A DNA stretch of 64,000 bases from Dictyostelium discoideum (Eukaryota): NCBI GenBank assembly GCA_000004695.1, contig CM000154.2, forward strand, positions 3,648,001-3,712,000, written 5' to 3'. Below are positions 59,194 through 62,571 of the stretch, one piece after another. The position numbers were made by a program, and so were the translations under genes. The notes beneath the pieces were generated by a model, which made no database searches, was not told the DNA's origin, and saw only the letters and a program-made list of their open reading frames with translations. How positions within the stretch are numbered: the first letter of the stretch is position 1; every line of letters starts with the position of its first letter.

Positions 59194-62100
59194 TTAAATT
59201 CTATTACTTTTATTATTATTATTTTTTTCTATTGTTGGTAATTTATTACCAGGGAATAATATTTGTTCAAAACTATTTATATCATTCAAAAATTGAATAA
59301 AGGGATAGAAAGAGTGATTTGTATTTAACATTTCTGACCATGACTTTATGTCGACACCTCTTTCTTGACCAAATTCATTTTTAAATAGAGATAGTAATGA
59401 CTCTGAGTTTGCTGTAAAATATGAATAAATATTACTATCACCATTGGCTGGTGGTGAGTTTGAACTTTCTTTTTTATAATTAATTATAAAATTATTAACA
59501 AATTCGTCAATGGGTGTGATATCAGTTTTAATGGATTCTGGTAACAATGGATAATAATTTAATTTCCTGCAAGTGTCAAATAACTTATTTAAATAATTTG
59601 AATAATAAATAGTTGGTGGTGTAATTGTTGTTAAATCATTTTTGTCAACTATAGTTGGGCATATCATTGCTGGTCTATGAATAACTAATTTTTCATCCAA
59701 ATTAAAATTTGAAATAATATATTCTGATAGCCATTTAGATTGTGCATATCCTCCATATATAATTTCATCATCATTATCACAATTAATTGATTGATTTAAG
59801 TTGTAAAGCGTTGCATTTGTTTGTTTTTCTTTTTCCCAATATTTAGAATTTGATAAAATTGTTGACAATGTTGAAATATAATGTATTTTTGAAAATTTAA
59901 AATTACTATGTTTTTCATTATTAATTAAATTATTTATAAAATCTAATAAATAATAAATTGATTTAATATTATCTTTAATCATTTCGTCAAATGGTAAATT
60001 CATATCAACTTTTGCAGCACAATGAATAATTGTTGAAATATTTGAATTTAAACAAAGTTTTTCATATTCTAATTGATTTAAATCAAAATTTATTTTACCA
60101 ATATCACCTTTTAATATAATAATTCTATTTGAATCTTTTAAATTTAATTTATTTAAAATTTCATTTAGTTTTTCAATATTTCTAACCAATAAATAAAATG
60201 TTGAATCTTTAAATTCATTTTCATTACTATTTATAATATTTTTAAATATATTAAAACCAATAAAACCAGTTACACCAGTAATTAATATATTATTTGAATA
60301 ATTTGATTGAAGAGTTTTATTATTATTATTATTTTTATTATTTATTGTGGTGGTGGTGGTAATTTTTTGATTTGTATTAAAATTTAATAAAAATGATTTT
60401 AAATCAAAAATTGATTTAAAACCAAATTCATTTTTAAAATCTTTACTTGTTAATACTAATATAATATTATCAATTGATTTTAAATTATAAATATGAAATA
60501 CTGTTAAGAAAATACCAAATTTAGATCTAGCTAATTCAATTATTTGCATACATTGAATTGAAGTCATACCATAATTTAAAACTAAATCTTGATTAGATTC
60601 AATTGAATCATTCATTAAAATAGTTTTAAATATATTAATTAAATTTGATTTTAAAATTGATTTATTATTACTATCATCATCTTCACCATTTATTTGTTCG
60701 TTTGATTGTTGTTGTTGTTGTTGAATGAATGGGATTGGTAATTGAAATTTATCAATTTTTTCACTTTTATTTAATGGAAATGATTTTAATATAATAAAAT
60801 ATTGTGGTATCATATATTTTGGTAAAGTTTTTGAAAGAAATTCTTTTAAAATATTTGAAAGTAAATTTGAATTTGTTGAAAATGATTTCACTAATTCAAT
60901 ATCATTAATATTGGTATTTAATTTACATGATAATGGTTTTTCTTTTATAATTAAATATGCAATCAATGCTTTGTTATTATTATCACCTACTAATTTAACA
61001 TCACATATTGCTTGATGAACTAAATGATGATTTTCTAAAGTTTTTGAAATTTCATCCAATTCAATTCTTGAACCATTTAATTTTATTTGATTATCTATTC
61101 TACCTCTAAATTCAATAGATTCTTTACCATTTTCATCAATTCCAATTAGTTTACCCCAATCACCAGTTTTAAACATTCTAGTAATACCATCATTTATAAA
61201 TGGATCTAATGAAAATGATTGATCTGTTTGAATTTGATTTTTAAAATAACCTAATGCTACACCATCACCACTAATATAAATCTCACCTTCTGAACCAATG
61301 GTTTTAATTGGTAATTTAGTTTCTTGATCCAATAAATATAAAGATAACCCTGGTACTAAATCACCCAATGATAATAAATTAACATTATCTTTAGTAGCTT
61401 CATCATCGTCATTATCATTATTATTATCATCATCTATTTTATAAATTAAATTTGTAGTTGTACAAACTGTTACTTCAGTTGGACCATAAACATTTATAAT
61501 ATTTATTTTTTTTCTCCATTGTTTTAAAACATTAATTGGGCATTTTTCACCACCAATTACAAAAGTTTCCAATGGTGATGAGTTTGCATTAAATGCATCA
61601 ATTGAAAGTAATGATAAAAATGATGGTGAAATCATAGCCGCTGTAATTTTATTAAGAGTTACATGATTTAAAAATGAAATACTTGAACCTCTAATTAGTT
61701 GAGCATCATTTGAAGTTTTTGGAATTAATAATGTACATCCACCAAGTAGGGAAGTTCCAATTTCTGATAAACTTGCATCAAAACAAATTGGTAATGATTG
61801 TAATAATCTTGTATGTTCTCTTTTAAATTTAAATGACTTAATTTGATGTTTTAAAAATGGTACTATACCTCTGTGAGAACATAATACACCTTTTGGATTA
61901 CCAGTTGAACCACTTGTATAAACTAAATAAGCTGGATCATTAATAATATTAATATTATTATTTCCATTATTTTGTTTTGAAATTTCAAAATTATTATTTA
62001 ATTCTAAAAATTTATCAATTAATTTATTATTAATTTCTTCACAATTAAATAAACAATCTAAACAAATAATTTTTTTATTTTTAAATAATTCTTTATTATT

Positions 62101-62571
62101 ATCATTTTGGTGATGATTATGAGTTGTTATAATTATATTACAATCTGAATGATTTAACATATAAATTAATCTATCATTTGGATATGTTGTATCTAATGGT
62201 AAATAAATTAAATTTAATTTAAAAATTGATAATATTGAAATAATTAATTGGAATGAATGATTTTGATAAACTCCAATAATAATTTTATTATTATTATTAT
62301 TATTATTATTATTATTATTATTATTATTATTATTATTATTATTATTATTATTATTATTATTATTATTATTATTATTATTATTTTGATTTATTATATTTAA
62401 TAAATGATTTGATAAATAATTTGAAATTTTATTCAAATTTTTAAATGATAGGCAATCGTTTTGATTATCATTATTAGAACCAATTACTTTTAAATATTCC
62501 AAAGCATTATGGTCAGAGTCATTTGATTTATTTAATAAATCTATAAATGATTCAAAATAAATATCCCCCAT
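59194..62571 (-). CDS. NRPS-like adenylation-thiolation-thioester reductase enzyme (A-T-R; Lys2 / carboxylic-acid-reductase architecture), single 1125-aa ORF
   Basis: ATG at 62571. An N-terminal (AAT)n run codes polyN. AMP-binding motifs: LAYLVYTSGSTGNPKGVLCSH, NVYGPTEVTVCTT, GEIYISGDGVALGYF, FKTGDWGKL, KLNGSRIELDEI. Carrier-protein-like segment ..LVLNYGMTSIQCMQIIELARSKFGI. C-terminal NAD(P)-binding reductase ILITGVTGFIGFNIFKNII ... YGGYAQSKWLSEYII (TGxTGFxG and YxxxK). Confidence 0.85.
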   Translation of the reverse strand: MGDIYFESFIDLLNKSNDSDHNALEYLKVIGSNNDNQNDCLSFKNLNKISNYLSNHLLNIINQNNNNNNNNNNNNNNNNNNNNNNNNNNNNNNNNKIIIGVYQNHSFQLIISILSIFKLNLIYLPLDTTYPNDRLIYMLNHSDCNIIITTHNHHQNDNNKELFKNKKIICLDCLFNCEEINNKLIDKFLELNNNFEISKQNNGNNNINIINDPAYLVYTSGSTGNPKGVLCSHRGIVPFLKHQIKSFKFKREHTRLLQSLPICFDASLSEIGTSLLGGCTLLIPKTSNDAQLIRGSSISFLNHVTLNKITAAMISPSFLSLLSIDAFNANSSPLETFVIGGEKCPINVLKQWRKKINIINVYGPTEVTVCTTTNLIYKIDDDNNNDNDDDEATKDNVNLLSLGDLVPGLSLYLLDQETKLPIKTIGSEGEIYISGDGVALGYFKNQIQTDQSFSLDPFINDGITRMFKTGDWGKLIGIDENGKESIEFRGRIDNQIKLNGSRIELDEISKTLENHHLVHQAICDVKLVGDNNNKALIAYLIIKEKPLSCKLNTNINDIELVKSFSTNSNLLSNILKEFLSKTLPKYMIPQYFIILKSFPLNKSEKIDKFQLPIPFIQQQQQQSNEQINGEDDDSNNKSILKSNLINIFKTILMNDSIESNQDLVLNYGMTSIQCMQIIELARSKFGIFLTVFHIYNLKSIDNIILVLTSKDFKNEFGFKSIFDLKSFLLNFNTNQKITTTTTINNKNNNNNKTLQSNYSNNILITGVTGFIGFNIFKNIINSNENEFKDSTFYLLVRNIEKLNEILNKLNLKDSNRIIILKGDIGKINFDLNQLEYEKLCLNSNISTIIHCAAKVDMNLPFDEMIKDNIKSIYYLLDFINNLINNEKHSNFKFSKIHYISTLSTILSNSKYWEKEKQTNATLYNLNQSINCDNDDEIIYGGYAQSKWLSEYIISNFNLDEKLVIHRPAMICPTIVDKNDLTTITPPTIYYSNYLNKLFDTCRKLNYYPLLPESIKTDITPIDEFVNNFIINYKKESSNSPPANGDSNIYSYFTANSESLLSLFKNEFGQERGVDIKSWSEMLNTNHSFYPFIQFLNDINSFEQILFPGNKLPTIEKNNNNKSNRI

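Follow-up and report, generated by a model that had tools for sequence, protein, structure and literature searches.

Introduction

ATRed of Xenorhabdus indica and GupB of Streptomyces are described as three-domain proteins composed of an amino-acid-type adenylation (A) domain, a thiolation (T) domain and a thioester reductase (R) domain, with no condensation domain, and both release an aromatic amino acid reductively as an amino aldehyde. ATRed converts phenylalanine to an aldehyde that goes on to a pyrazine (PMC7586950), and GupB converts tyrosine to an amino aldehyde that goes on to a piperazine (PMC8179380). Among eukaryotes, FmtATR of the molluscan bursatellin pathway produces tyrosinols by four-electron reduction (PMC11869996), the diatom PtNRPS1 makes tryptophanol (PMC13194791), and the fungal HqlA is cited as a tyrosine reductase in 10.1101/559534. 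Here we describe an A-T-R gene in a 64,000-nucleotide stretch of Dictyostelium discoideum DNA (assembly GCA_000004695.1, contig CM000154.2, positions 3,648,001 to 3,712,000; the whole stretch is referred to as the window). The gene occupies window positions 59194-62571 on the minus strand and in our judgement probably encodes a stand-alone, monomodular amino-acid reductase of the nonribosomal peptide synthetase (NRPS)-like type, derived from bacteria and acting on an aromatic or large hydrophobic substrate.

By their published descriptions, ATRed and GupB are the closest parallels to the amoeba protein, which has the same three domains, an amino-acid-type adenylation domain and no condensation domain, and their aromatic substrates are consistent with the neighbourhood of its specificity code. 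GupB acts within a gene cluster that also encodes tailoring enzymes; the amoeba gene has no such cluster and belongs to a eukaryotic host. FmtATR, too, is a monomodular, bacteria-like NRPS encoded by a eukaryote and built on an A-T-R core, and its adenylation domain is predicted to be specific for tyrosine; in contrast to the amoeba protein, it carries an N-terminal formyltransferase domain and belongs to a gene cluster. The domain order and the chemistry from carboxylate through thioester to aldehyde are also common to alpha-aminoadipate reductase (Lys2), bacterial carboxylic acid reductases (CARs) and the fungal glycine betaine reductase ATRR. The N-terminal domain of Lys2 and the second reductase domain of ATRR are absent from the amoeba protein, and the aspartate that binds the alpha-amino group is kept.

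An intact single-exon gene conserved across Dictyostelia

The open reading frame (ORF) begins with ATG, encodes 1125 amino acids (aa) and contains zero internal stop codons. The G+C content is approximately 22% around the ORF and approximately 14-30% over the window. At the G+C content of the ORF approximately 9% of random codons (about 1 in 11) would be stops and, by our own arithmetic, an open frame of 1125 codons would arise by chance with a probability of approximately 1e-48, so that the frame cannot be accidental. Uninterrupted genes were called at the locus in two independent D. discoideum assemblies, 1112 aa long and intron-free in another lineage (L001) and 1125 aa long in an AX4-type assembly (L011). 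Moreover, the N- and C-terminal ends of the 1125-aa protein matched the ends of its orthologues in the alignment. These results show that the gene is real, intact and contained in a single exon, the last as the preliminary description of this locus had held; the coding strand, which that description omitted, is the minus strand. An exact look-up of the 1125-aa product in a collection of 15 billion proteins returned no match, and no AX4 accession was found among the matches. In view of the 1125-aa gene called in the AX4-type assembly, this was treated as a database inconsistency and not as a sign of an unannotated gene.

Full-length orthologues in other D. discoideum lineages were 96-97% identical, and orthologues with 40-58% identity were found in D. 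purpureum, Polysphondylium violaceum, Tieghemostelium lacteum, Cavenderia fasciculata, Heterostelium album and Synstelium polycarpum. The dictyostelids sampled amounted to seven species, and nine dictyostelid sequences were used for the comparison of residues. Compared with a second D. discoideum lineage, synonymous divergence (dS) was 0.10 and the ratio of nonsynonymous to synonymous divergence (dN/dS) was 0.15, a value that indicates purifying selection. Taken with the orthologues in six other dictyostelid species, this ratio argues that the gene is functional.

The D. purpureum orthologue (P0002; L002, 10001-13800) carries an in-frame insertion of approximately 160 aa that contains two Myb/SANT repeats (PF00249, E value 5.9e-17). 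The extra segment is placed in the A2-A3 loop, shares its ORF with the A3 motif and is absent from the other orthologues. Either a domain was truly inserted here or the assembly or gene model is in error.

Domain architecture and catalytic residues

Domain searches recovered all three domains that had been described from the sequence. The Pfam AMP-binding family matched residues 99-443 (E value 7e-55), and the NCBIfam model TIGR01733 for amino-acid adenylation domains scored 276 bits. Motifs A1 to A10 were located, including the full A3-A10 set reported earlier. The Pfam NAD_binding_4 family matched residues 764-1026 (E value 1.5e-27), and the thioester reductase model TIGR01746 scored 88-91 bits. 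Within the NAD(P)H-dependent reductase, a Rossmann motif TGVTGFIG and a YGGYAQSKW motif with the catalytic Tyr and Lys were found. The best solved relative of this domain was the MxaA reductase domain (4u7w), which matched at 31 bits and had the motif GGYAQSKW in common. There was a single reductase domain (residues 761-1105), followed by only 20 more residues up to the C-terminus at residue 1125. No match to the condensation family PF00668 was found; the A, T and R domains occupy the whole protein, and there is no second module.

The carrier-protein-like segment contains the motif G-M-T-S(671)-I. The Pfam PP-binding family matched residues 644-703 with 19.6 bits, just under the gathering score of 20.8 bits, and was found in eight of the nine family members with a best E value of 3.8e-9. 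The mean predicted local distance difference test (pLDDT) score of the AlphaFold model was 74, and the A, T and R domains were modelled with confidence. In this model residues 632-708 folded into a bundle of helices, one of which (671-685) has Ser671 as its N-terminal residue. The matches in family members, the invariance of Ser671 and the modelled bundle together indicate a genuine carrier domain, in which Ser671 is the predicted site of phosphopantetheine attachment. The top matches of the model among solved structures were NRPS adenylation and adenylation-thiolation structures, namely LgrA in the thiolation state, ApnA A1 (TM score 0.88, normalised to the target) and GrsA; this search, made with the model of the whole protein, mainly reflected the adenylation domain and gave no information on the reductase domain.

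The catalytic residues were highly conserved. The A3 P-loop (except for N225), Asp265, the YGPTE core, Lys605, Ser671, Tyr942 and Lys946 were invariant in the nine dictyostelid sequences. When eight bacterial A-T-R proteins were added to make 17 sequences, K605, S671, G766, G769, S900, Y942 and K946 were still invariant, and T901 was kept in at least 90% of the sequences. The positions of the domains and motifs are given in Table 1.

Specificity code of the adenylation domain

All adenylation domains were aligned by hidden Markov model to GrsA-PheA; the GrsA sequence used yields the expected code DAWTIAAICK at the standard residue numbers. The 10-residue code of the amoeba protein was DASMVGVVCK and was identical in all nine dictyostelid sequences. 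The most similar adenylation cores outside the dictyostelids formed two groups. The first group consisted of NRPS modules with the codes DASTVAAVCK or DASTIAAVCK, which are Tyr-type codes of the Stachelhaus table. The second group consisted of stand-alone A-T-R proteins of 950-1045 aa with the codes DASCIGVVCK, DASDIGVVCK or DASDVGVVCK. On this evidence, an aromatic or large hydrophobic amino acid (Tyr, Phe or Trp-like) is the most likely substrate.

Asp265 and Lys605 occupy the positions of Asp235 and Lys517 of GrsA. Since both equivalents are kept, an alpha-amino acid is the expected substrate. The adenylation domain is of the ordinary amino-acid NRPS type. The Asp235 equivalent is absent from the adenylation domains of ATRR and from acid-activating adenylation domains (10.1101/559534).

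Bacterial relatives and origin of the A-T-R unit

A neighbour-joining tree of 193 adenylation cores with 100 bootstraps recovered the dictyostelids as a clade in 100 of 100 replicates. A group made up of the dictyostelids and seven stand-alone bacterial A-T-R proteins (P0027, P0028, P0052, P0058, P0077, P0086 and P0105, from Leptospiraceae and others) was recovered in 90 of 100. The next branches outward were a formyltransferase-A-T-R protein and then modules of Tyr/Phe type. The seven proteins, 950-1045 aa long, have the same architecture as the amoeba protein and codes that differ from its code at one or two positions. They are uncharacterised in function and only 26-30% identical to the amoeba protein; at code position 278 they have Cys or Asp in place of Met, so that the substrates may differ. 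The bacterial nature of the stand-alone A-T-R proteins was evident from one cluster named Leptospiraceae and from contigs that carry the Leptospira-associated DUF1564 together with ordinary bacterial genes.

The reductase domain gave a corresponding result. Compared with approximately 290 fetched proteins, it matched the dictyostelids, the same stand-alone bacterial A-T-R proteins, a 340-aa eukprot fragment (P0293) and a short metagenomic reductase fragment (P0294), and it had zero matches to the reductase domains of C-A-T-R NRPSs (those with a condensation domain, C) in that set. Because the reductase domain matches the same bacterial proteins that form the sister group of the adenylation domain, a common origin of the whole A-T-R unit is indicated, and the unit was probably acquired from a bacterium ahead of dictyostelid diversification. 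That the transfer ran from bacterium to amoeba is what we infer from this placement.

No eukaryote outside Dictyostelia was present among the named matches in the best 120. A profile of the orthologue alignment gave 227,934 matches in 1.84 billion representative proteins and was of no help in finding orthologues outside the dictyostelids; the best 150 of these matches were almost all multi-module NRPSs of 5-8 thousand aa, whose summed scores swamp single-module proteins. A word-index search with the reductase domain alone returned two proteins and missed known orthologues, and a reductase-domain profile search, which likewise missed them, gave for the most part short thioester-reductase fragments of bacteria; P0293 was its one new eukaryotic match. 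The word prefilter is apparently lossy for this AT-biased, Asn-rich protein, and missing matches are therefore weak evidence.

Two further observations were made. In Leptospiraceae-type contigs (L007, 9671-9967; L009, 6587-6883), a 98-aa ORF without a Pfam match lies directly upstream of, or overlaps, the start of the A-T-R gene and adjoins crcB and a major facilitator superfamily (MFS) gene. It may encode a conserved small partner protein. Furthermore, a 1533-aa metagenomic protein (P0114), placed on the next branch outside the clade of dictyostelids and bacteria, combines a PF00551 formyltransferase domain with A-T-R, the architecture of the mollusc FmtATR.

Proposed reaction

In the reaction that we propose, the Sfp-type phosphopantetheinyl transferase of D. 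discoideum would convert the carrier domain to its holo form on Ser671; a transferase of this type that is active on carrier domains exists in the organism (PMC3171403). The adenylation domain would bind a free L-alpha-amino acid, whose amino group would pair with Asp265 and whose carboxylate would pair with Lys605. The bound amino acid would then be adenylated and thioesterified on the holo-carrier. The reductase domain, of the short-chain dehydrogenase/reductase (SDR) type with a Thr901/Tyr942/Lys946 triad and a TGxxGxxG cofactor site, would use NAD(P)H for reductive release of the thioester, giving an alpha-amino aldehyde, and a second hydride transfer may carry the amino aldehyde on to the amino alcohol. 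Free amino aldehydes of this type dimerise spontaneously to dihydropyrazines and from there give pyrazines or piperazines, a likely fate here as well. By analogy with this behaviour, the end product in the amoeba is probably a pyrazine- or piperazine-type heterocycle or an amino alcohol derivative. Since no tailoring enzyme is conserved beside the gene, the enzyme would act alone.

Several points weigh against this assignment. The PP-binding score of the D. discoideum sequence itself is just below the Pfam threshold, the residue preceding Ser671 is Thr where Asp or His is usual, and the reductase domain is so divergent that it reaches only 31 bits with the best solved reductase domain. The code DASMVGVVCK has no exact match to any code known to us. 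Its positions 278 (Met), 301 (Gly) and 322 (Val) are unlike those of Tyr and Phe codes, so that a different hydrophobic amino acid or a non-proteinogenic one could be the substrate. The named orthologues are annotated solely as hypothetical or carrier-domain-containing proteins, and it is we who infer the substrate and the chemistry. No conserved tailoring genes lie nearby in six dictyostelid genomes to hint at the product, and no described Dictyostelium metabolite that needs such an enzyme was found in the literature searched. Finally, the tree was built from top database hits alone.

Alternative functions

It is improbable that the carrier-loaded amino acid is instead passed in trans to another enzyme, for example a Dictyostelium polyketide synthase (PKS), or that the reductase-like domain performs a non-redox release. 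The reductive step is read from the sequence of a highly divergent domain, and D. discoideum has many PKS genes in addition to its Sfp-type transferase (PMC3171403). Nevertheless, an intact and conserved NAD(P)H motif and Thr/Tyr/Lys triad argue for a redox-active domain. No condensation or ketosynthase (KS) partner and no conserved neighbouring gene accompanies the protein, and its closest relatives are likewise stand-alone A-T-R proteins.

The architecture had previously been compared with that of Lys2 and CAR, and the common domain order stands. Membership of either family does not, as judged by the scores of the NCBIfam equivalog models against their cut-offs. For a CAR acting on aryl or fatty acids and not on amino acids, the model NF041592 aligned weakly, with 24 bits on the T-R half compared to a cut-off of 1300 bits, and was outside the 25 best families for the whole protein. 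The Asp235 equivalent, moreover, is kept and invariant, and the adenylation domain matches TIGR01733 and groups with NRPS modules. A CAR-type function is therefore very unlikely, notwithstanding the A-T-R order and the match in the reductase region.

A role in lysine metabolism as the Lys2 orthologue would account for the A-T-R order and for a partial alignment to TIGR03443 that is significant in itself (E value 2e-62). However, the score of this alignment was 211 bits compared to an equivalog cut-off of 1030 bits, and generic NRPS models outscored it. The alignment begins at model position 293, so that an N-terminal domain of approximately 290 residues is missing, with motif A1 already at residue 41, and the nearest adenylation domains carry Tyr/Phe-type codes. 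D. discoideum requires lysine in defined medium, which also counts against a lysine-forming enzyme, and we give the Lys2 assignment scarcely any probability.

Two roles had been suggested in the preliminary description, aldehyde-forming secondary metabolism, which fits the present results, and an ATRR-like enzyme. An ATRR-like glycine betaine reductase making choline is the hardest to credit: such genes are reported in fungi and some protists and have their first three domains in this order, but ATRR is defined by a second YdfG-like SDR domain together with loss of Asp235 (10.1101/559534), and the amoeba protein ends 20 residues past its single reductase domain and has the Asp235 equivalent.

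A possible conserved small-molecule pathway in social amoebae

Polyketide synthases and terpene synthases are what the secondary metabolism of Dictyostelium is chiefly known for. The class of enzyme and the chemistry considered here are already well established; what is new is an uncharacterised dictyostelid member, which constitutes a lead for annotation and pathway discovery and not a new principle. No described dictyostelid NRPS-like enzyme, pyrazine or amino alcohol, and no treatment of this gene, was found in the literature searched. As an amino-acid reductase, the protein would add a protist case to the eukaryote-encoded, bacteria-like monomodular reductases represented by fungal HqlA, mollusc FmtATR and diatom PtNRPS1, and the gene is a clean candidate for ancient transfer from bacterium to amoeba.

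The single-copy A-T-R gene and the unchanged pocket in all sampled dictyostelids would point to one conserved small molecule. It is possible, though on balance doubtful, that all social amoebae keep the bacterium-derived reductase to make a so far undetected aromatic amino-aldehyde or amino-alcohol molecule, for example of the pyrazine, piperazine or tyrosinol type, and that this molecule serves them as a conserved signal or for defence, during development or between predator and prey. If true, no earlier natural product pathway of the nonribosomal type would have been described in Dictyostelia. With an intron-free gene and a genetically tractable organism, discovery of the metabolite should be feasible.

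Genomic neighbourhood

The gene is flanked by the mitochondrial L30 gene and rps17 in both D. discoideum and D. purpureum, and an MFS transporter gene is found further upstream. The neighbours are different in P. violaceum, T. lacteum, C. fasciculata and H. album. Around the gene in these six dictyostelid genomes, no conserved biosynthetic cluster or tailoring genes were found, and synteny was loose, being limited to ribosomal protein genes and the MFS transporter. The AT-rich intergenic region upstream of the gene (Table 1) presumably holds its promoter.

Table 1. Positions of the A-T-R gene, its domains and motifs, and adjacent features in the window
Feature	Position	Strand	Evidence
Complete coding sequence, 1125 aa, single exon, A-T-R	59194..62571	-	ORF list, two assembly gene calls, orthologue end alignment
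Adenylation domain (~aa 8-614), NRPS amino-acid type, N- and C-terminal subdomains	60730..62550	-	Pfam, TIGR01733, solved-structure matches
Poly-asparagine tract (aa 64-95) between A1 and A2, species-typical low-complexity insertion	62287..62382	-	pLDDT <50
Motif A3 YTSGSTGNPKG (aa 218-228), ATP-binding P-loop	61888..61920	-	Motif search; all residues but N225 invariant in nine dictyostelid sequences
Motif A4 FDAS (aa 264-267), Asp265 = GrsA Asp235 (alpha-amino binding), start of specificity code	61771..61782	-	HMM alignment to GrsA-PheA
Motif A5 NVYGPTE (aa 360-366), followed by T-V-C giving code positions 330 and 331	61474..61494	-	Motif search, alignment
Motif A10 NKSEKIDK (aa 601-608), Lys605 = catalytic Lys517 of GrsA	60748..60771	-	K605 invariant in 17 sequences including bacterial relatives
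Thiolation (carrier) domain (aa 632-708); Ser671 codon 60559-60561	60448..60678	-	Pfam, conservation, model
Thioester reductase domain (aa 761-1105)	59257..60291	-	NAD_binding_4, TIGR01746, 4u7w match
Reductase sites: TGVTGFIG; Ser900/Thr901; Tyr942; Lys946	60256-60279; within 59863-59883; 59746-59748; 59734-59736	-	
AT-rich intergenic region, common to the divergent mitochondrial ribosomal protein L30 gene	62572..63189	.	Sequence; L30 by Pfam
Mitochondrial ribosomal protein L30 gene	63190-63507	+	Immediate neighbour, Pfam
Cytosolic ribosomal protein S17e gene	about 58300-59050	+	Immediate neighbour
CfaA_B_C (counting-factor-associated) family gene	57065-57652	-	Immediate neighbour

The poly-asparagine tract differed in length among D. 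discoideum lineages and was absent in the other species. The neighbouring CfaA_B_C, S17e and L30 genes have no obvious link to the reductase. An MFS_1 transporter gene with a faint BT1 match lies beside the L30 gene, just past the end of the window (L001, 6748-8488; L002, 7433-8656; L004, 18714-20363). It was found near the reductase gene in D. discoideum, D. purpureum and T. lacteum and not in the other three species, and it may reflect plain synteny or be a linked exporter.

Elsewhere in the window, the region 50000-56000 has a G+C content of approximately 14-15% and almost no long ORFs, with only short genes called in a related assembly. At approximate positions 43900-47100 (L011, 5883-9062), a 1059-aa gene call with an RVT_1 match lies between WD40/F-box genes and a peptidase S28 gene, and the match suggests a retroelement. 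One ORF of the window was identical to the D. discoideum AX4 protein XP_635889.1/Q54GJ7, which identifies the DNA as that of strain AX4. The purD gene (Q54GJ2) and the peptidase S28 gene (Q54GI7) lie nearby.

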